Positions 6,752-40,807 of a stretch of DNA of 41,468 nucleotides are shown piece after piece. The DNA comes from a virus (taxonomy: Duplodnaviria > Caudoviricetes), in IMG/VR virus record IMGVR_UViG_3300032212_000048, positions 1 through 41,468 of that record; one strand, 5' to 3'. Numbering within the stretch: the stretch's first letter is position 1; each line of letters starts with the position of its first letter. A program made the position numbers and the translations under genes. The notes under the pieces are model-generated. The model saw only the letters and a program-made list of their open reading frames with translations. It searched no databases and was not told where the DNA came from.

Positions 6752-7104
6752 TGGCGGATACAATTTCAAAATCAGCCGTTTTTCCAATTGCGCTCGGCGG
6801 CGCTTGTGTTGGGGCGGCGCTTGTGGCGGCGCTTGCTTTGCTGGGAGAGCAAAAACCCACTTACGGGGAAGAAAAAGAACGCGCAACACTCGTGGGGCGC
6901 GTTTGTATGGTCAGAGGGGAGCGCGAAGCGAGCGCGCGGCTTTCCCTACGCGACACGCCTAGCGAAATTTTGGGCCAGTGCCTTTATGCGTGCAGCAATT
7001 TGGGCGGGCTGTATGACAAGAAGGGCGAAGAGGAAGCGTGCGAAGCTGCTGTGAACAAATACTTTATAGAAAACGACATGATTTTGACGGGGGGCAACAA
7101 ATGA
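6751..7104 (+). CDS. Membrane-anchored or exported Cys-containing hypothetical protein
   Basis: TGATG overlap; N-terminal hydrophobic helix; four Cys in the soluble part. Confidence 0.65.
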   Translation: MADTISKSAVFPIALGGACVGAALVAALALLGEQKPTYGEEKERATLVGRVCMVRGEREASARLSLRDTPSEILGQCLYACSNLGGLYDKKGEEEACEAAVNKYFIENDMILTGGNK

Positions 7105-7703
7105 CAGCAACTAACCCGCAAGACCGCGACGCCTGGATTGCGCCTAAGTTTGTTTGTGAAACTTCGGAGAAAACAGCAGAGGGGCGGCGGCTATCTGTGT
7201 TTGAGTGTCGGTGCGGCCAATGCTTTAAGGCTCCAAAAGGAAGAGTTGATTCGGGTGTTCGAAAAACGTGTGGTTGTAAGACGGGCTTGCCCGCTCCAGC
7301 AAAGAGTCACGGGGGAAGATACATGCCCGAATATGGTCACTGGCAAGCAATGCGGCGAAGGTGTTTGAGCAAACGGCATAAGGACTACGCCGGATGGGGC
7401 GCTAAAGGCATCAAAATTTGTGCGCGATGGAATGATTTTGCGCTGTTCATAGAAGATATGGGGCTAAAGCCGTCGCCAGAAATGTCCTTGGACCGGATAA
7501 ACCCAAACGGCAACTATGACCCGGGTAATGTGCGGTGGGCAACACCTGCGCAGCAAATGCGAAACCGCAAGGACTTTACTTATGTGGGCACTCCTTATGG
7601 GATTTTTGCTTTAATAGATTGGGCTGAAGCAATTGGCCTAACCAGCGGCGCGGCTCACATGCGGCTAAAGCGGGGTAAGTTGGAGGGCTGTTGTCGTGCT
7701 TAA
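7101..7703 (+). CDS. Free-standing HNH-type homing endonuclease
   Basis: CRCG...SG..KTCGC, WQAMRRRC, ICARWNDF..F..DMG, SLDRINPNGNYDPGNVRWAT. Confidence 0.88.
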   Translation: MTATNPQDRDAWIAPKFVCETSEKTAEGRRLSVFECRCGQCFKAPKGRVDSGVRKTCGCKTGLPAPAKSHGGRYMPEYGHWQAMRRRCLSKRHKDYAGWGAKGIKICARWNDFALFIEDMGLKPSPEMSLDRINPNGNYDPGNVRWATPAQQMRNRKDFTYVGTPYGIFALIDWAEAIGLTSGAAHMRLKRGKLEGCCRA

Positions 7704-8319
7704 TCCTCAGGATAAACCGGCTTGGATCAAAAAAAGATCTGGCAAGATAACCGCGTCTCGCATTGGCGACATTGCGCGGCGCATGAAGAACGGCAAGCCT
7801 TATCAGACTTGGGAAAACTACGTTTATGAGGTTCTGACAGAACGCCTTGCGAGGCAAGCAACAGAGCATTTCGTAAGCGCGCCTATGCAGTGGGGGCTTG
7901 ATCAGGAAGCTAACGCGGTTGCCTATTACGAGTTTGAAAAGGGCGTAGAGTGCGCGTTTAGCGACTTTGTGGATCATCCAAGCCTTGAAATGTCCGGCGC
8001 ATCCCCTGATCGATTGGTTGGCAAGGACGGCCTGTTAGAGGTCAAATGCCCGATTACGCGCAACCACATTAGCTTTCTGCTGGATGGCAGCATTGAAAAC
8101 CTCGGGGCCAATTACCCTTGGCAGATCCAATGGCAGCTTGATTGCACGGCCCGTGATTGGTGCGACTTCATGTGTTTTGACCCGCGCTTGCCTGTGCACC
8201 TGCAGGCAAAGATTGTCCGGGTTGAGCGTGATGACGAAATGATTCGCGAAGCCCGCGAGGCTGTGGCTGAAGCGCTGGCGCATATTGCGGAGCTTGAGAA
8301 AAAGCTGGGAGCGGTTTGA
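7696..8319 (+). CDS. YqaJ / lambda-exonuclease family 5'-3' exonuclease
   Basis: RSGKITASRI, MQWGLDQE, GASPDRLV..DGLLEVKCP, QIQWQL..T.RDWCDF. Confidence 0.92.
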   Translation: MLNPQDKPAWIKKRSGKITASRIGDIARRMKNGKPYQTWENYVYEVLTERLARQATEHFVSAPMQWGLDQEANAVAYYEFEKGVECAFSDFVDHPSLEMSGASPDRLVGKDGLLEVKCPITRNHISFLLDGSIENLGANYPWQIQWQLDCTARDWCDFMCFDPRLPVHLQAKIVRVERDDEMIREAREAVAEALAHIAELEKKLGAV

Positions 8320-8795
8320 TGGACCTACTCAAAGAGATAGACGCAATTCGCGGTGAGATGCGGGGCGTGTCTGGCGCCGCGGTTTTTGTCGAGGTGAATG
8401 CGGACGTATTGCGCGCCCTGTGCAATGCCGCAGAAAGCCACCTGCAACCGGATCTGTTCGCGGTGCCTCACCAGAAGACAAGCGCGACCAGTGCGGAGGC
8501 TGCGGACAAGTGGCGCCCGAAGGCGAAGACTAACGGCATGATAGCGCTATACTGTGTTGCTCGTCGGTCTGGCGTTACCCGTGAACAGCTTTGCAAGTTT
8601 ACTGGCATGCTCAACCAAACCGCTTCTGGGCGGCTAAACGTCCTGAAAACCGCCGGCCTGATCAGAGCGGACGGCAAGCGCGAAGCCTCGACAGGCTTTA
8701 ACCAGGAAGTATACTATTTAACGCAGCGTGGGGCTGATTTCCTTAACCAGGTAGGGGCTGAAAATGGTGAAGATGTTAAATACAAAGCGGCATAA
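8319..8795 (+). CDS. Winged-HTH DNA-binding protein
   Basis: GVTREQLCKFTGMLNQTASGRLNVLKTAGLI...VYYLTQRG. Confidence 0.75.
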   Translation: MDLLKEIDAIRGEMRGVSGAAVFVEVNADVLRALCNAAESHLQPDLFAVPHQKTSATSAEAADKWRPKAKTNGMIALYCVARRSGVTREQLCKFTGMLNQTASGRLNVLKTAGLIRADGKREASTGFNQEVYYLTQRGADFLNQVGAENGEDVKYKAA

Positions 8796-30639: not shown

Positions 30640-31425
30640 CTACACGTCATTCGCTGCAACCAGGCGGAGGCTTGGGCGGTTTCCCCGCATTCCCCCCTTA
30701 GCTGGCTTAGGCTGCTTTGCAGGCGACTTGCGCTTGCGAGCTTTTTCCTCTGCAGCAAACTCTTGATTATAGCGCGTCTGAATACGCGCCGAAACCGCAC
30801 TGATCATGGAACGTATCAGAAAGGCAACAATCTGGTAAATCATTGCCGCGATGCCGATTTCCATAACTGGAAGCGTGGTTTCGCGTAGCTCTGCAATCTC
30901 ACGCTCTGCGTTGATTTTGTCGAGCATTGGCGTTTTTCGCTTGGCGTCATACTGAACAACGTCAGCGCGGCGCGTCTGAGGGCAGAGGCAATCGCGCTCT
31001 GGCAACAGGATGCTGTCCAGCTTGTGCACCGCAGTGTTGTAGCGGTTGGTTGCCTGCTGGATCTGGTCAGCCTTTTGCGCCGCGTCGAATGTGACAACAG
31101 AATTGACCTGCAACGCGCTCCCGACGAGCATGAAGCCTGCCAGAAGGAAAAGGCCCGGAAGCATCAGTTTCCAGCCAGCGCGTGCCCATACAGGGGCAAA
31201 AGCAACTGGCACCATGTCCAGAAGGAAGGCCAGCGCGCCCGCAAAGACCGCCGCAGCAATTGCCAGCGATCCGCTAAGGCCAAGGGCCTGCGTCCACATG
31301 GCCGCGCCGACTGCTGTAGCGCCCGCGATCAGCGCGCAAACGCTGACAACAATAGTATGTGCGATTACGAACGCAGGGGCTTTTTTCGGCCCTTTTCGTG
31401 TGGTAGTTCGTTTCTTGGTCGCCAT
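30640..31425 (-). CDS. Moron-like polytopic membrane protein (about 4 TM)
   Basis: Three N-terminal TM helices, a helical loop with CLC, a fourth TM and a basic tail; own RBS (GGAGACTAA), promoter and terminator. Confidence 0.8.
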   Translation of the reverse strand: MATKKRTTTRKGPKKAPAFVIAHTIVVSVCALIAGATAVGAAMWTQALGLSGSLAIAAAVFAGALAFLLDMVPVAFAPVWARAGWKLMLPGLFLLAGFMLVGSALQVNSVVTFDAAQKADQIQQATNRYNTAVHKLDSILLPERDCLCPQTRRADVVQYDAKRKTPMLDKINAEREIAELRETTLPVMEIGIAAMIYQIVAFLIRSMISAVSARIQTRYNQEFAAEEKARKRKSPAKQPKPAKGGMRGNRPSLRLVAANDV

Positions 31426-33205: not shown

Positions 33206-33877
33206 ATGAGCCTGCAGATTGAAACCAAAGAGGCCATTGCTGCAATGCAGGCCGCAGCCAAAGAGTGCGACGATGTTGTTGCAGCGGCGGCTAACCCGGA
33301 CGAGCTGGGCAATGACCTGGAGGGCACGGGTTATAGCTACATCGTTCAGCGCATTACTGATGCCCGCAACATTCTTAACAATGTCCTGAAGGACGTGGGC
33401 GGGGTGCCTGTGGTGCCTGCAGCGCCCGCGCCGCGTGTTGAGGTCCGCGAGGCTGAACCTGTTGTAGAGCAGGTCACACGGATTGAAGAGGTTGACCGCC
33501 AATCGACGCTAGACAAGCTGGAAGCGCTAGAGGCCGACAATGCCCGCCTGCGCAACCTGGTAGATCAGGGCGTTCAAGAGATTGAAACGGTCATGGCTGA
33601 AAACCAGACGCTTAAGGCTGAAGAGGCTGGCGCGCCTGACGAGGTGACTGAAGCGCTGAAAGAGGTAAAGAAGAAGATCGATGAGCGTGAGGTGCCGTTT
33701 AGCTTCAGCGTCGCGTTTCTAGATGAAGAGGCACAAGAGGGCGAAGACCACGCCGCCACGAATGCCCGCCTATTGGCTGATTACGAGGAACTGCAGCAAA
33801 CCAAACAAGCGCTGAATTTCAACGAAGACCAGCGCCGCGAGCGGCTGCGAGCGGCTTTCTACAGTTTCAGGGGGTAG
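33206..33877 (+). CDS. Acidic coiled-coil hypothetical protein
   Basis: 223-aa ORF; AAAGGGGC upstream. Confidence 0.75.
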   Translation: MSLQIETKEAIAAMQAAAKECDDVVAAAANPDELGNDLEGTGYSYIVQRITDARNILNNVLKDVGGVPVVPAAPAPRVEVREAEPVVEQVTRIEEVDRQSTLDKLEALEADNARLRNLVDQGVQEIETVMAENQTLKAEEAGAPDEVTEALKEVKKKIDEREVPFSFSVAFLDEEAQEGEDHAATNARLLADYEELQQTKQALNFNEDQRRERLRAAFYSFRG

Positions 33878-33880
33878 CCT

Positions 33881-34318
33881 GTGTCCGATGACGCGCTAGT
33901 CAGGTTTGACGATCTTTATAACAAGATCCTCGCCGCTCAAGACGCGTCAGAACCGTTTTTTGAGGTGTTCCGGCAGCATACGGGCAAGGCGTTTATAAAG
34001 GAATTTTTCCTGAAACCGTCGCGCCTGATCATGCAGGAAGTGAGCGAAAGCTACGATAGAGACATTCTGGCCGGGCGCCGCGAGCTGTACATAGGAAAGA
34101 CGGATATAGAGTACTGGGGCTACGAAACAGGGCACCATTTCTTTGAAAATGACATGCGTGTTATAAACGGTCTGCCCTTTCCTGAAGGGTCATTAGATCA
34201 ATATGGTCGGTTAAGCGAGCCTTGGACCTCTCCTACAACTGGGGCAAAAGGCGTTTGGAACGGTCGCAAATATAGATTAGATGTAGGTGACAGGGTTTTC
34301 TTAGTCGGGCTGGATTAG
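33881..34318 (+). CDS. Stand-alone PAS-fold (PAS_4-like) protein
   Basis: KAFIKE, YIGKTDIEYW..E....FENDMRVI and RKYRL..G.RVFLVG match the AFIKD / IGKTD / END.RV / K.PL...LVG pattern of PAS_4 domains. GTG start 3 nt after the upstream stop. Confidence 0.72.
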   Translation: MSDDALVRFDDLYNKILAAQDASEPFFEVFRQHTGKAFIKEFFLKPSRLIMQEVSESYDRDILAGRRELYIGKTDIEYWGYETGHHFFENDMRVINGLPFPEGSLDQYGRLSEPWTSPTTGAKGVWNGRKYRLDVGDRVFLVGLD

Positions 34319-34321
34319 ACA

Positions 34322-34765
34322 ATGATTTCGCGGGATGAATTGCGGGCTGTTCTCAAAAGCATGCGAGACATGTTTGTTGAAAACCGTAATGACCTGAAAG
34401 AAAAAGCCGACAAAGACGAGCTAGAGCGCGTTGCTTCCGGGGTGCTGGGGCAGACCATGGAGCGCGTTGAAAGCAATAATCAGAACATTCTAACCAACCT
34501 GCCCGGCGCTATTGATTCTGCCGTTGACAAGAAACTAGCAGAAAAATTGCCCGCTCTTGTGCGCGAGGAAGTCGAGACGATCCGCGCTTACGAAGACGAG
34601 CAAAGGGAAAGCCGCCTAGCGGTATTCTTTAAGTGGGTCGGCTATGTTACGGGTGTTTTGATTGCGATAACGGCGGCGGCGAGTGCCTACCTGACGTTTT
34701 TCGGCAAAGACAGTCCGGAGGCACACGAGCTGCGGCGGGCGGTGGACCGGGTGCAAGATTTGTAA
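34322..34765 (+). CDS. Coiled-coil protein with one C-terminal TM helix (holin/antiholin candidate)
   Basis: TM segment WVGYVTGVLIAITAAASAYLTFF; located in the lysis region. Confidence 0.65.
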   Translation: MISRDELRAVLKSMRDMFVENRNDLKEKADKDELERVASGVLGQTMERVESNNQNILTNLPGAIDSAVDKKLAEKLPALVREEVETIRAYEDEQRESRLAVFFKWVGYVTGVLIAITAAASAYLTFFGKDSPEAHELRRAVDRVQDL

Positions 34766-34774
34766 GGGGCTGAC

Positions 34775-35791
34775 ATGGCAATTCCGTTTTTGCGTTCTGA
34801 GAGCGAAGAAGAGGTCACACAGGCAATTGCCTTTGTGGGAACGGTTACGATTACTCTCGCGCTTGCGGTGTTTAATGTGGTCGGGGCAATTTCACGCTCT
34901 GAGCCGACAACCGCGCTTGGCGTCCTAGCGGCGGGCTCGTTCGGTGTTCTGCTTGCGGGCCTTGAACTGATGGCTGCTGTGGCGCTTGTGCGGGCGCTTG
35001 TGGCACCTACGCGACTGCGTCTATTTCTTGGCGTTGTGGTGTTTTTCGGGCTTGCCTGGGTCTGCGTCCAAAATGGCAAGTTTGCCGCTAAAGAGATTTT
35101 CCCCGAGCTGAAAACAAACGCCACGCTCCTAGAGGCCAAGGCGGACGTTAAGACCAAAGACGCGACGGCGCAGGATGCCCGCGAGGCCGCAGCGCAGACG
35201 GCGCTACCCGATATGCTGGCAGGCGTGCAGGATGACATTATCGAGGCTGAGCGGCAACAAAGGCTGTTAGAGGCGCAAAGCCCTGAGAAAATCGCAGAAA
35301 TGCAGCAAATGCTTATTTCGAACGGTTATTACTTCTACCAGGTAGATGGGCGGATTGGTCCGGAAACAGAGCGGGCTATGCGCTCTATGGGCGAAGACCT
35401 CCGCAACAAGCTTTCTACCCTGAACGCTCAGGCGGTGCGGTTGCGCTCTGGAATCATCGGTACGGATGAGCCGGAAAGCGAAAGCTCTGATGAGGATAAC
35501 GCAGCCATACAAGCTGCGGTGTTCGCGGATCAGGCCAAGCAAAACCGACAGGCAGGCGTTTGGATAGAGGTTATGCTTTGGGTTGCTGAAGGTGGCCGCT
35601 CGCTTGGCTTGTGGTTGTTCGTGATTACCGGGACGCGAAAGAGCGCTCTGGATGGGCAAGGGGCCGATACGCCAGAAAAGACAAAGGCGCAGCTAAACGG
35701 CGAGCTAGGGGCGGACGCGCGCAAACATAACCAAAAAGGCCGGGAAGGGTCTAAAATCCTGATCCCGCCTAAAGTGAAGGTGTTGGGCTAA
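34775..35791 (+). CDS. Polytopic membrane protein with coiled coil and peptidoglycan-binding (PG_binding_1-like) domain
   Basis: Three N-terminal TMs; IAEMQQMLISNGYY..QVDGRIGPETERAM (Q..L...GY...DG..GP.T..A motif); C-terminal hydrophobic segment. Confidence 0.78.
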   Translation: MAIPFLRSESEEEVTQAIAFVGTVTITLALAVFNVVGAISRSEPTTALGVLAAGSFGVLLAGLELMAAVALVRALVAPTRLRLFLGVVVFFGLAWVCVQNGKFAAKEIFPELKTNATLLEAKADVKTKDATAQDAREAAAQTALPDMLAGVQDDIIEAERQQRLLEAQSPEKIAEMQQMLISNGYYFYQVDGRIGPETERAMRSMGEDLRNKLSTLNAQAVRLRSGIIGTDEPESESSDEDNAAIQAAVFADQAKQNRQAGVWIEVMLWVAEGGRSLGLWLFVITGTRKSALDGQGADTPEKTKAQLNGELGADARKHNQKGREGSKILIPPKVKVLG

Positions 35792-37296
35792 TGGACTATC
35801 TGATTGGAATCGACTTTGGCACAACCAATTCTTGCGCCGTCTACAATGACGCGGGCAAAGAGCTGGTGATCGAAGCGGCGAGCGGGCAAAACACTATGCC
35901 TAGCGTTGTCGCGGTCAACACAGATGGCTCTTACCTTGTGGGGCAGAGCGCCCTGAAGCGCCTGATACGCGGGCGCAAGGAAGAGGCGCGCTATGTGTTT
36001 ACGAACATTAAGCGCGAAATGGGCCGCAAGGTGCCAGAAGGCGAAGCGCTAGAGGAACAAATGGACGTGGACGAAGACCTTAACAGCGTCTTTCGCGGTC
36101 CTGATGGCCCGATAGCCCCGCATGTCCTGGCCGCGCAGGTGCTGTCAACGATCAAGGCGGCGGCTGAGCGACGTATCGGCAAGAAGGTACGCGGCGCGGT
36201 TATCACGATTCCTGCGGGCTATTCTCCGGACCAAATTGAAGCGACCTACCAGGCCGCAGAGCTGGCGGGATGGAAGCGCAACAAGATCACCCTGCTAAGC
36301 GAGCCTGAAGCCGCTGCGATTGCGTACAGCTTTGACAAGGGCCAGTTTCGCCGGGTGCTGGTGTTTGATATGGGCGGCGGCACGCTTGACGTTGTCTTGA
36401 TGGACACAGGCGCCGATAAGCTGACCACGACAGGCAAGGACGGGTCACAATGGCTCGGGGGCATCGACTTTGACCGCCGCATAGAGAGTTACATTGTTGA
36501 TAACTTCAAAGGCGATACGGGCATTGATTTGCGCGATAAGCCTATTTCCATGCTGAAAATGCGGCCAGTTGTAGAGGATGGCAAAAAAGAGCTAACAGAC
36601 ACGGACCAGGTTAAGATTTTCATTGAAGACGGCGCGCTAGATACCGAAGACGGGCGCTTTATGGACGTAAAGTATGAAATCTCCCGGCCTCAATTTGAGG
36701 GCATGGTGCAAGACCTGATTGATCGGGCAATGGGCCTGGTTGATAGCGCCTTGCAGAGCGCTGGTGTGCAGCCTGAGCAAGTACAAGATGTTGTGCTTGT
36801 GGGCGGTATGACGCGTGTGCCGGCCATTCGTGAGGCTCTGTCGAAGTATTTTAGCCCGTCAAAGATCCGCGACACGATTAGCCCGGACACGGCAATTGCG
36901 CGCGGCGCTGCGATTCGGGCGGCTGAACTGGACGGGCGCCTGGTTGACCGGCGCACCTATGACCAGATCAGCGCGCACGCTTACGGCATTGCAGGGGCGC
37001 GCGATGAGTTCATTTTGTTTATTCCAAAGGGCGCAGACGCAGGCACGAAAGAAACCCGCGTCCTGAGCAACCAGAAGAAAAACCAGACTGAAATTCCTAT
37101 CGCGGTGCTGCAGGGGCAGAACAAAAAAGCCAGCACAAACACGCTTGTTGGCGAGCATCACGTAACAATTTTGCCACAAGCGAAGGCTAGTGCTAATGTC
37201 GAGCTGACGTTTGAGGTTCTGGAAGACGGAACCCTAAGCGTTTACGGGCAAGACCTCGATTCTGAAGAGAGGTTTACGATTATAGGGGCGGGCTAA
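35791..37296 (+). CDS. dnaK: Divergent Hsp70/DnaK-family ATPase lacking the helical lid
   Basis: GIDFGTTNS, TMPSVVA, IKREMG, AVITIPA, EPEAAAIAY, VFDMGGGTLDV, LGGIDFD, LVGGMTRVP, PDTAIARGAA, NQTEIPIAVLQG. Confidence 0.95.
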   Translation: MDYLIGIDFGTTNSCAVYNDAGKELVIEAASGQNTMPSVVAVNTDGSYLVGQSALKRLIRGRKEEARYVFTNIKREMGRKVPEGEALEEQMDVDEDLNSVFRGPDGPIAPHVLAAQVLSTIKAAAERRIGKKVRGAVITIPAGYSPDQIEATYQAAELAGWKRNKITLLSEPEAAAIAYSFDKGQFRRVLVFDMGGGTLDVVLMDTGADKLTTTGKDGSQWLGGIDFDRRIESYIVDNFKGDTGIDLRDKPISMLKMRPVVEDGKKELTDTDQVKIFIEDGALDTEDGRFMDVKYEISRPQFEGMVQDLIDRAMGLVDSALQSAGVQPEQVQDVVLVGGMTRVPAIREALSKYFSPSKIRDTISPDTAIARGAAIRAAELDGRLVDRRTYDQISAHAYGIAGARDEFILFIPKGADAGTKETRVLSNQKKNQTEIPIAVLQGQNKKASTNTLVGEHHVTILPQAKASANVELTFEVLEDGTLSVYGQDLDSEERFTIIGAG

Positions 37297-38501
37297 TGGC
37301 GCGACAGTTCGGAAAATGGTTTGCAGAGGGCATAGCCCATTTTGAGGGGAGCCGCGCAGGCGGCATAATCCTCACGGCAGAGCGTGACAGCGGCGGGGTC
37401 TGGACTGGCCCTAATGGCATGATCACAAACCCGGCCGGAACGCCAGTCTATGAAGGCCAGACATGGACGATTGACGAGGCGGTTGCGCTCTACACAGACG
37501 GCAAGGAAAGCTTTGCTGCGCATGTCGAGAAAGTGCTTGGCGATCTGAACTCTAAAGTCACTCCGATGATGTTTGACGGGCTGGGTCTGCTTTGCTGGAA
37601 CATTGGCAAAACGGCGTTTGCTCGCTCCACGGTGGTTGAAAAGCTACGTGAAGGGCGTTTTGAGGATGCTGCAGCGGCTTTCTTGCTCTGGAAGGGCGAT
37701 ACCATGCACGGGGGAAGCAACGGGCCTGACGGCAAGCCTGTGCGCGGCCCTGACGGCAAAGAGCTGCCTAAAGGGGTGGCATGGTTCAAATTGTTCCGGG
37801 GTTTGTACCGTCGCAGCATGTATGCCGCGCTCTTGTTCATGAAGCGCGACCCGGCCTTTGCGGCGAATGCTGCCAACATTGCGCTTGGCAAGATGACGAC
37901 AACGCGCGGTGCAGATTATTTTTATGATGTGATGATCCAGGAACAATCGACTTCTTGGCGCGACGCGCTGGACGCAAGCCCGGTTGTGACAGAGGAAGCG
38001 CCTAAGCCCGCTCCTAAGCCTTCCAGCGTGCCTGAGCTGCCTGCAGACTGGCATTTGTACTCAGATTCCGAAAAAGTCGCTTGGCTCAACACTGGCCAGC
38101 TTCGCGATCTTCAATCGAAGGGAGGTGATCCAGTCTCGCCGCAGGTCGTGCCTGTGAAAAAGGTGCGTCCGGTTAAGCAGGTGCGCCCTGCAAGTGAAGT
38201 GCCTTACCTTTCGGACGAAGCCAAGGCCGACATAAAGACTAAAAAGGTTAGCCAATCCAAGCGCGGCAACGCGTTTGCAAACAAAAAGATTGCGGGCACC
38301 GTTGGCACGGTGTCGATTGCGGGCATGGCGGCTGACCAGATCGGCGCTGTTGAGCCTGTTCTGAAGGCTGCCAACACCTACGGCAACGCTACAATTGGTT
38401 ATGTGTTGCTCGCCGGTTTGGGATTGGCCGTGATTTACTGGATTTGGGGTGAATACCTTCAGCGCTGGGGCGAAGAGGACGCCGACACGCTGCTAGAATG
38501 A
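37296..38501 (+). CDS. Endolysin, GH24-like lysozyme with Pro-rich linker and C-terminal hydrophobic segments
   Basis: HFEG...ERDSGGVWT, MFDGL...WNIG..AFARST....L..G....AAAAFLLW, GLYRR; TM IGYVLLAGLGLAVIYWIW. Confidence 0.85.
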   Translation: MARQFGKWFAEGIAHFEGSRAGGIILTAERDSGGVWTGPNGMITNPAGTPVYEGQTWTIDEAVALYTDGKESFAAHVEKVLGDLNSKVTPMMFDGLGLLCWNIGKTAFARSTVVEKLREGRFEDAAAAFLLWKGDTMHGGSNGPDGKPVRGPDGKELPKGVAWFKLFRGLYRRSMYAALLFMKRDPAFAANAANIALGKMTTTRGADYFYDVMIQEQSTSWRDALDASPVVTEEAPKPAPKPSSVPELPADWHLYSDSEKVAWLNTGQLRDLQSKGGDPVSPQVVPVKKVRPVKQVRPASEVPYLSDEAKADIKTKKVSQSKRGNAFANKKIAGTVGTVSIAGMAADQIGAVEPVLKAANTYGNATIGYVLLAGLGLAVIYWIWGEYLQRWGEEDADTLLE

Positions 38502-38800
38502 CGCCGATTTTTGCCGCCTTCGACTTCGTGCGCCAATCCAAAGCGGCGCAAATTATCCTGACAGTGGGGGTTATCCTCCTGATCTGGTTCGCAAACAATG
38601 CGTATCAGCGTAGAATAGGCAGTTCCAAGGCGCGGGCTAAGGCCCGTGAAAAGGAAATCGAAGTCATAGAAGAGGTAAGAGACAATGGGGCAGAAATCAC
38701 TGAACGTGCAAAGGCGGCTCGCGCCGCTGCTATTGCCGCTAACTATCCTGACGCTGACAGCGTGCCAGACCACCTCGCCGCCGTCCTCTTCGACGATTGA
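38498..38800 (+). CDS. Inner-membrane spanin (Rz-like)
   Basis: N-terminal TM, then a helical domain; follows the endolysin with an ATGA overlap. Confidence 0.72.
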   Translation: MTPIFAAFDFVRQSKAAQIILTVGVILLIWFANNAYQRRIGSSKARAKAREKEIEVIEEVRDNGAEITERAKAARAAAIAANYPDADSVPDHLAAVLFDD

Positions 38801-38963
38801 GGGCCTGGTCGAGGATAACGAAATCATCACGCGAGACGCTGCCTGCGAGGCGCTGAAGCCTGAAAAGGTAACCCGAGTGGCATTTAACGCCATGACTCAA
38901 CCAGAGCGCAACGAGCATGTTGCAGACGCTGCGGCCTGGGAATCGCTATGCGGCGCGCAGTAA
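38706..38963 (+). CDS. Outer-membrane spanin lipoprotein (Rz1-like)
   Basis: Overlaps the i-spanin in another frame. Signal and lipobox (M)QRRLAPLLLPLTILTLTA-C. Start is GTG 38706 or ATG 38685. Confidence 0.8.
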   Translation: MQRRLAPLLLPLTILTLTACQTTSPPSSSTIEGLVEDNEIITRDAACEALKPEKVTRVAFNAMTQPERNEHVADAAAWESLCGAQ

Positions 38964-39421
38964 GGGCCTCTCAACCCGCCAAACGGCACGAAATTCCCGC
39001 ATGGGTCGGTGCGCCGCTCTGGGCGGTGGGCGGCTTTGCAAAGCGGCACTGGAAAACAAAAGCGTGGATAGCCGCGGTTCTGGTGGCGGGCTACACGCCT
39101 TACGTGATGCACCGGCATGCACATTACATAGAGGATTACCGGTGCGATAAAATCACTGTTGCGGCGCAAGTGGCCTATCAACACGGTTGCTTTGGCCGGG
39201 AATGCTCTGAAGACCTGCTAGCCTACGAACAAACCGTTTTAATGACGTATGGCGCGCTGCAGGAGGGGTGCTATGCGCCTGCGCCTATCCGGCCTGACGA
39301 AGCGGTTTCAATGTTTGTTAATGCGGCTGGCGATGCGTTGCAGGGATTGCAGGAGACGGACGCTGTTTTGCCTGAACCGCCAAACCCAAAGCCCACGCTG
39401 GTTGCAGACGTGGGCGGTTGA
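38948..39421 (+). CDS. Hypothetical membrane-anchored protein with four Cys
   Basis: Last ORF of the late operon; WIAAVLVAGY hydrophobic stretch; start uncertain. Confidence 0.6.
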   Translation: MRRAVRASQPAKRHEIPAWVGAPLWAVGGFAKRHWKTKAWIAAVLVAGYTPYVMHRHAHYIEDYRCDKITVAAQVAYQHGCFGRECSEDLLAYEQTVLMTYGALQEGCYAPAPIRPDEAVSMFVNAAGDALQGLQETDAVLPEPPNPKPTLVADVGG

Positions 39422-40501: not shown

Positions 40502-40807
40502 TTAGTCTGCTTTGCAGAAATGGCTTGCGCGGCGAGTCACAAACTCGCGGCACACTTTGCGGAACTCTGGCCCGTGCATCTCGATTTTGTTGCCGTAGCG
40601 CTTCCAGGCCTCGAAATGCGCCATTTCGTGCAGGATGACCTGATCCATATCGGGGCCCATTCGGCTTTGGTTAACCACAATCCAGCGTTGCCCAGAATCT
40701 GTGAGCGTGGCGCGGGCGGTTTCCCGAGCGGTGATCAGTTCACCGTCTGGCTCCATGATGAGCAGGCGGACGGCACTAAGGGCGGCTATCGATAGTTTGG
40801 TAATCAC
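40502..40807 (-). CDS. SprT-like zinc metallopeptidase
   Basis: VILHEMAH...HGPEF; AGGAG RBS, GTG start. Confidence 0.8.
   Translation of the reverse strand: MITKLSIAALSAVRLLIMEPDGELITARETARATLTDSGQRWIVVNQSRMGPDMDQVILHEMAHFEAWKRYGNKIEMHGPEFRKVCREFVTRRASHFCKAD

Follow-up and report, generated by a model that had tools for sequence, protein, structure and literature searches.

The stretch of DNA analysed here (the window, 41,468 bases; IMG/VR record IMGVR_UViG_3300032212_000048) is the whole genome of a podovirus-like phage of the Caudoviricetes, with a CheckV completeness of 100% and genes for terminase, portal, capsid and short tail. Its tail-fibre genes are followed by a lysis cassette, in which an Hsp70 that lacks the α-helical lid is encoded between a four-transmembrane (4-TM) protein with a peptidoglycan (PG)-binding motif and a lysozyme with a C-terminal membrane anchor. 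The association of a lidless phage Hsp70 with a 4-TM PG-binding protein in lysis cassettes is real and conserved, and apparently undescribed. The cassette comprises seven genes, given here with coordinates, strand, product and basis (aa, amino acids; NBD, nucleotide-binding domain; SBD, substrate-binding domain; E, expectation value):

33881..34318, +: stand-alone PAS-fold protein, 145 aa (AlphaFold model, Foldseek, ESM Atlas); optional, outside the conserved unit
34322..34765, +: small protein, 147 aa, with a helical N-terminal part and one C-terminal TM helix (hydropathy); candidate holin-like or partner protein, of no family
34775..35791, +: 4-TM inner-membrane protein, 338 aa, with PG-binding motif (Pfam, model, family conservation)
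35791..37296, +: lidless Hsp70, 501 aa, consisting of NBD and SBD-beta (Pfam PF00012, alignments, tree)
37296..38501, +: lysozyme-family endolysin, 401 aa, with C-terminal TM helix (PF00959, hydropathy)
38498..38800, +: Rz-like inner-membrane spanin (phrog_1026, E 0.0065; TM peak)
38685..38963, +: Rz1-like outer-membrane spanin, a lipoprotein whose gene overlaps that of the inner spanin (phrog_1275, E 4e-4; lipobox LTAC)

A preliminary description of this DNA had drawn up the same seven open reading frames (ORFs). All of them lie where it placed them, as do the gaps of 3, 3 and 9 nucleotides at the front of the cassette, the TAATG overlaps at 35789-35793 and 37294-37298 and the ATGA at 38498-38501. 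Its assignments of the Hsp70, the lysozyme, the PG-binding protein and both spanins are backed by Pfam or PHROGs matches. Scans for promoters and terminators gave a signal no higher than that of shuffled sequence.

The Hsp70 of the window matches PF00012 (E 4e-95) and aligns to E. coli DnaK (PDB 2KHO) 3-500, with NBD and SBD-beta covered over residues 3-496 (E 2e-77), an alignment that ends before the lid. The absence of the lid (SBD-alpha) had been overlooked in the preliminary description. We compared 44 lidless proteins (38 database matches and six from the loci described below, partly non-independent) with 77 full-length DnaK proteins: 0-15 residues follow query position 496 in 44/44 of the former, and at least 86 in the latter. 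The NBD bears the hallmarks of the Hsp70 superfamily, namely phosphate-1 (D8, T11/T12), K70, E171, phosphate-2 (D194, T199) and the adenosine motifs, and D8, K70, E171, D194, T199, K270, G342, Q433 and G443 are conserved in all 44 lidless proteins. The SBD-beta retains its hydrophobic peptide pocket with Q433, and pocket positions 401, 436 and 438 are hydrophobic in nearly all members. In contrast, the VLLL interdomain linker has decayed, and residues present in 77/77 DnaK proteins are kept in few lidless ones (Y145 in 13/44, D148 in 3/44, R151 in 7/44, T173 in 8/44); R167 occurs in 0/11 among the lidless rows listed. In the window's protein, RTYD occupies the linker positions, and G143, P146, I149, Y153 and T167 stand at the allostery sites Y145, D148, R151, K155 and R167. 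In DnaK these five residues touch the SBD-beta and take part in NBD-SBD allostery, and the Y145A exchange abolishes stimulation by DnaJ (PMC4595643).

In a tree built from 25 lidless and 26 full-length sequences, the lidless proteins part from full-length DnaK at 100/100; because the tree is unrooted and has no HscA or HscC outgroup, we claim no donor. A database search scored 7,998 candidates, of which 948 reached E<=1e-60; among the best 120 of these 948, the top 37 (35 proteins of 475-503 aa and two fragments) outrank the first full-length DnaK. The window's Hsp70 stays under every NCBIfam cut-off for DnaK and HscA, with 327 bits against the 823 needed for TIGR02350. Among 50,697 GenBank phage records, the closest Hsp70 match is just 33.9% identical. 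A match in these records, from Pseudomonas phage Y6, is an ORF of 639 aa with another of 377 aa behind it, as in ordinary dnaK-dnaJ pairs. No HPD or HTD motif occurs in the window and no DnaJ domain (PF00226) in its genome or in five related records; GrpE was not searched by name, and host co-chaperones could still act. Judged by sequence, the lidless Hsp70s are a distinct family, which has retained the ATPase and peptide-pocket residues and lost the lid, the linker and the majority of the residues for allostery. One further candidate of 489 aa, at 7001-8720 of the viral contig L071, was rejected; it keeps VLLL and has its lid in another frame, as expected for an ordinary DnaK frameshifted by a sequencing error or a broken gene.

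The same neighbourhood recurs in distantly related phages. After removal of duplicates (L003=L001, L085=window, L101/L102=L015, L103/L104=L058, L106=L073, L110=L099), the lidless Hsp70 is preceded by a 4-TM gene in 17/17 loci, and an endolysin lies downstream in 13/13 loci that extend far enough. These counts are lower bounds. The 4-TM gene belongs to the window's family in 14/17 loci; in L015, L058 and L073 it has the same topology without profile similarity. Twelve of the 17 loci had been fetched via the membrane protein, which leaves the five fetched via the Hsp70 as the fair test: membrane gene, endolysin and spanin-like genes are present in 5/5. With the same profiles, ordinary viral DnaK loci gave a lysozyme, 4-TM or PAS match in 0/77 cases. 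Many of the loci are close kin (L085-L089; L093/L097; L095/L096/L098). Hsp70 identities across independent contigs with the same arrangement range from ~33% to 82%, and this recurrence means that the arrangement reflects neither chance nor misassembly.

The Hsp70 is not present throughout. In L001, L004, L090, L091 and L099 the 4-TM gene runs straight into the endolysin gene, and the 95%-complete L004 genome encodes no Hsp70 anywhere. When 15 loci are placed on a tree built from the membrane core, Hsp70 presence switches at least three times, a number forced by the starred branches. Together with the Hsp70 gene (13 loci) or by itself (five loci), the 4-TM gene directly precedes the endolysin wherever a locus extends that far (18/18), across endolysins of ~20% identity. 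The conserved unit is the 4-TM PG-binding protein, the lidless Hsp70, the C-terminally anchored lysozyme and the spanins, and the Hsp70 is dispensable at the level of lineages. This unit, kept in order in distant phages, is smaller than the one proposed in the preliminary description; the PAS gene varies and the Hsp70 is missing from five loci.

Further scans differed in what they recovered. A single-protein scan of viral contigs with the window's Hsp70 gave no relative, and a family-motif DNA scan for lidless Hsp70s found none. An alignment-based Hsp70 scan over 17 of 64 parts of the viral contigs gave mostly ordinary DnaK among the matches listed, and a fragment-alignment scan yielded seven loci, two of them new. 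Two loci contain additional ORFs that look HNH-like by sequence, in L087 (1872-2438, +) between 4-TM gene and Hsp70 and in L094 (9642-10415, -) between Hsp70 and lysozyme.

The 4-TM protein matches PG_binding_1 at E 5e-5, barely past the Pfam cut-off, and the D, G and T of the motif are conserved in 39/39 further family members. In the predicted model (predicted template modelling score, pTM, 0.51), TM1-3 are followed by a long hairpin with the PG-binding motif, TM4, a cytoplasmic helix and a loose end. The hairpin is predicted to form a coiled coil facing the periplasm and the C-terminal tail to lie in the cytoplasm, a placement that would fit the positive-inside rule given the basic residues after TM2 and TM4. 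Buried polar residues in the TM helices are nearly invariant among the further members (E64 39/39, N100 38/39, E272 38/39, R275 38/39). The protein has no match among the 50,697 GenBank phage records and no profile match to holin families. Against a viral structure library, its model gave three matches at E<=0.001, all uncharacterised or unnamed. Foldseek matches to pore-forming toxins and receptors were discarded (TM-score ~0.2, E>0.02), and no solved structure matches.

Close to the tail-fibre genes there is also a multi-TM gene on the opposite strand, in the window (30640-31425, -), L015 (3091-3912, -), L086 (2867-3700, -) and L073 (12831-13745, -). Those of L015, L073 and L086 are recognised by the profile of the 4-TM family (E 8e-8 to 6e-4); that of the window (phrog_2618) scores 5 bits against it, and paralogy is not shown.

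What sets the membrane proteins of the two kinds of loci apart is their tail. In the window, this is a basic cytoplasmic helix that ends in KILIPPKVK; other Hsp70-plus loci likewise have a basic helix and a hydrophobic end peptide, e.g. KILIP, KKIPV or NERLLVIG. A [KR]-phi-x-phi pattern occurs in the tails of 12/13 Hsp70-plus loci vs 0/5 Hsp70-minus loci, a motif defined post hoc, after the sequences had been viewed. The Hsp70-minus tails run on into a domain of 135-186 residues at the same place, and a looser hydrophobic core alone occurs near the tail end in two of these five. Of the two loci found after the motif was defined, L105 matches and L107 has the hydrophobic core only. The motif also ends 23/49 further 4-TM representatives of unknown genomic context. 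Tails and membrane parts occur in different combinations: in L089, which has an Hsp70, a membrane core from a different branch is joined to a tail near-identical to the one in L088, and L073 and L107 have tail type and Hsp70 in common despite their unrelated membrane parts. Linkage alone could yield such swaps but would not keep the motif across Hsp70s of 33% identity. That tail type tracks Hsp70 presence makes it likely that the Hsp70 docks on the tail. Separately, P0033 and P0034 have near-identical membrane cores but differ in their tails (162 vs 68 residues), which points to a recent exchange of one tail type for the other.

The endolysin matches the phage lysozyme family PF00959 (E 2e-13), and its Glu17 is invariant in 14/14 aligned sequences. 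It has a low-complexity linker and, by hydropathy, a C-terminal TM helix at ~365-383 and no N-terminal hydrophobic signal, a layout that fits the C-terminally anchored M4Lys/LysAP type, with an N-terminal catalytic domain. A C-terminal TM peak is present in 13/14 endolysins tested from these loci, including 4/4 from Hsp70-minus loci; between Hsp70-plus groups the endolysins are ~20-45% identical. The spanins are of the two-component kind, with an N-terminal TM helix in the inner spanin and an overlapping lipoprotein with lipobox LTAC. In relatives, a small gene of similar shape occupies the slot ahead of the 4-TM gene, and a TM peak is encoded by 12/13 of the genes tested. In line with the earlier statement that no clear canonical holin is present, we detected no holin family: the sole PHROG holin match, at E 0.015, is at chance level, as it is one among 14 small membrane genes of this slot. 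In two Hsp70-minus loci, L004 (4933-5355) and L091 (7425-7853), a soluble gene of ~140 aa without a Pfam match lies between endolysin and inner spanin.

The first gene of the cassette had been called a PAS sensor, and its fold holds up in the model. The AlphaFold model (mean local confidence, pLDDT, 87) arranges a sheet of five antiparallel strands and the helices beside it in the order of a PAS domain, and every listed Foldseek row contains PAS or LOV (best E 1.4e-3, probability 1.0, TM-score ~0.55; none at E<=0.001). The ESM Atlas neighbours include PAS_4 clusters. There is no Pfam match in 27 members (window and 26 homologues), and the profile gave chance-level matches only (E>1) against PDB sequences. 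LOV domains bind flavin through the cysteine motif GxNCRFLQ; the 145-aa protein contains no cysteine and does not qualify as a LOV photoreceptor. It showed neither an output domain nor a ligand motif. The GC content of the gene is 49%, that of the genome 55.5%. The 26 stand-alone homologues (P0169-P0194), a family without a Pfam model, have in common a helix at the N terminus and a conserved loop of the ESSRTGQKG type. Although the gene is tightly packed in the cassette in seven loci, its presence is independent of the Hsp70: among 18 loci with enough sequence, both genes occur in five, PAS only in one, Hsp70 only in eight and neither in four (absence meaning within the fetched flank). Independent variation of this kind had been named in advance as what would speak against a joint machine. 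The PAS gene is thus a lineage-specific extra outside the conserved unit.

Several genes around the cassette deserve mention. Directly upstream (33206-33877) lies a gene for an acidic, probably coiled-coil protein of 223 aa and no family, and several relatives have related genes ahead of the cassette. A 157-aa gene (38948-39421) that overlaps the end of the outer spanin is kept there in L086-L088 and is possibly a further cassette member; in distant loci this slot holds a membrane gene of similar size. A small protein with a SprT-like metallopeptidase domain (PF10263, E 2e-8) is encoded at 40502-40807 (-). As to the host, the membrane gene was met in a single cellular record, an 11.6-kb contig of a Hyphomonas metagenome-assembled genome (MAG), and this contig may be a binned virus, and a prophage search of 401 genomes of its order gave one full match, namely that MAG. 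We regard an alphaproteobacterial host as a lead rather than a result.

How might these proteins act together? The 4-TM protein, predicted to be anchored to the wall, occupies the usual position of a holin and probably acts in host lysis. The Hsp70 has no signal sequence and would stay in the cytoplasm, on the same side as the predicted tail. Here, the end peptide of the tail (KILIP, KKIPV, NERLLVIG) may fill the SBD-beta pocket, much like NRLLLTG (NR), a model DnaK substrate peptide (PMC7083937), or the LP-motif of fungal Zuo1. Loss of the lid accelerates peptide exchange 10-100-fold (PMC7083937), and docking would tether an Hsp70 with fast exchange and little coupling to host DnaJ. The Hsp70 might then hold or remodel the 4-TM protein and so govern how that protein assembles or is triggered, whether as a holin-like lesion or as an exit route for the tail-anchored lysozyme; this is the weakest step of the model. 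The Hsp70 would be a swappable, nucleotide-dependent regulatory subunit; Hsp70-minus phages have a longer cytoplasmic domain where the short tail would be. That Hsp70 and 4-TM protein form a functional pair is probable, and better supported than any particular job. The reading we favour, that the Hsp70 docks on the tail of the 4-TM protein and regulates it as a subunit in lysis, we give a probability of roughly 0.45.

Several observations weigh against this assignment. The case for a role of these genes in lysis is built from gene order and sequence. The tail motif is short and post hoc, and the tail adjoins the Hsp70, so that joint recombination would also give co-variation. Many loci are close kin, and most were fetched via the membrane protein (12/17). 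Five loci presumably lyse their hosts without an Hsp70, including the 95%-complete genome. Remote 4-TM relatives (L015, L073, L086) are also encoded on the other strand and apart from the lysis genes; the fold is therefore not tied to lysis. Lastly, no holin family matches the 4-TM protein, and its model scores a low pTM (0.51), is of low confidence in the tail and resembles no solved structure.

A different role for the Hsp70, close to the favoured one and not mutually exclusive with it, is that of a dedicated targeting or export chaperone. It would keep the tail-anchored lysozyme soluble and hand it over to the 4-TM protein, which would move the catalytic domain across the inner membrane, the tail peptide being merely a docking site. 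We consider this unlikely as the principal job, although much is compatible with it: almost all endolysins have the C-terminal TM peak, the window's enzyme lacks an N-terminal signal, the Hsp70 gene is translationally coupled to the lysozyme gene, and the buried E/N/E/R residues of the 4-TM protein are nearly invariant. M4Lys, with its C-terminal TM helix, lyses without holin or Sec (PMC7143992), and DnaJ/K help to target some E. coli tail-anchored proteins, but were strictly needed for just one of seven model constructs (PMC6794478). Moreover, the endolysins of the Hsp70-minus relatives are equally tail-anchored (4/4 tested), and it is the tail of the membrane protein that co-varies with the Hsp70, whereas no co-varying feature was found in the endolysins, divergent as they are between groups.

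Somewhat less likely still is a late envelope module at the end of the late operon, in which the 4-TM/Hsp70 pair would serve superinfection exclusion, envelope remodelling, counter-defence or virion assembly. We retain this reading because remote 4-TM relatives also sit away from the lysis genes; the block moreover comes after the tail-fibre genes, in a region that gains extra genes such as PAS and the HNH-like ORFs of L087 and L094. The 18/18 loci in which the 4-TM gene directly precedes the endolysin and the invariant PG-binding motif (39/39) argue for lysis instead. The model of the preliminary description, in which PAS sensor, Hsp70 and membrane complex form one signal-tuned lysis machine, we now regard as improbable: the PAS fold and the tight packing of its gene speak for it, but 8/13 Hsp70-plus loci for which upstream sequence is available lack the gene, one Hsp70-minus locus has it, and its product has no detected output domain or ligand motif. 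PAS could still tune lysis in one lineage. Least credible, and largely excluded already, is the idea that the gene is a host dnaK, captured, truncated and now decaying or neutral. The lid and many DnaK residues are indeed lost, but 44/44 proteins keep the catalytic set and stop 0-15 residues past the same column, and they form a deep, separate family with a fixed gene position.

These findings bear on how C-terminally anchored endolysins reach the wall and what times lysis when no holin is recognisable. The block supplies two candidates for the missing parts, together with natural plus and minus variants to compare, and the lidless family is a natural case in which to study an Hsp70 that works with a single, fixed partner, if it does so. 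A bolder proposal, which we hold to be doubtful at present, is a new class of lysis apparatus. Here, a PG-anchored 4-TM channel, driven or gated by a tail-tethered, J-domain-independent phage Hsp70 ATPase, would export or release the tail-anchored endolysin and couple the timing of lysis to the ATP state of the host. If true, phage lysis would gain its first step powered by an Hsp70, and membrane-tethered Hsp70 motors would gain a bacterial counterpart.

The preliminary description had named no counterpart of this composition, and among the papers listed by literature searches outside which most subscription journals and supplements lay, we found no description of an Hsp70 in a phage lysis cassette, phage-encoded or lidless. 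Individual parts do have parallels. Endolysins with a C-terminal TM helix include M4Lys (PMC7143992), LysAP (PMC8879335) and Enc34 (PMC8943055), which share the N-terminal catalytic domain and C-terminal anchor of the window's enzyme. LysAP acts with a holin (PMC8879335), M4Lys lyses without one (PMC7143992), and the abstracts on both mention no chaperone or 4-TM PG-binding partner. Phage genes of the Hsp70 system are known from large phages, where moraphage DnaKs nest among host DnaK (PMC12619734), and from RB43, whose Rki is a J-protein for host DnaK (PMC3486835); the passages on them report no lidless form or link to lysis genes. For the MS2 lysis protein L, host DnaJ is proposed to modulate a membrane lysis protein (PMC10688784), but there it is a host J-protein in the single-gene lysis of an RNA phage, whereas in the window the Hsp70 is phage-encoded and part of a double-stranded DNA phage cassette.

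Compared with DnaK itself, the phage Hsp70 has an alignable NBD and SBD-beta with common catalytic and pocket residues, but no lid, no VLLL linker and no nearby DnaJ gene; its allostery residues are degenerate and it forms a separate branch. The closest analogy may be Ssz1 of the fungal ribosome-associated complex, a lidless Hsp70 that is tethered to its partner Zuo1, whose proline-rich LP-motif its SBD-beta holds as a pseudo-substrate (PMC7083937). The proposed tethering by a partner peptide would be a matter of analogy, not kinship. Ssz1 is eukaryotic and ribosome-bound, has a J-domain partner and does not hydrolyse ATP, whereas the phage family keeps the residues for hydrolysis and is likely to have a membrane protein as its partner.

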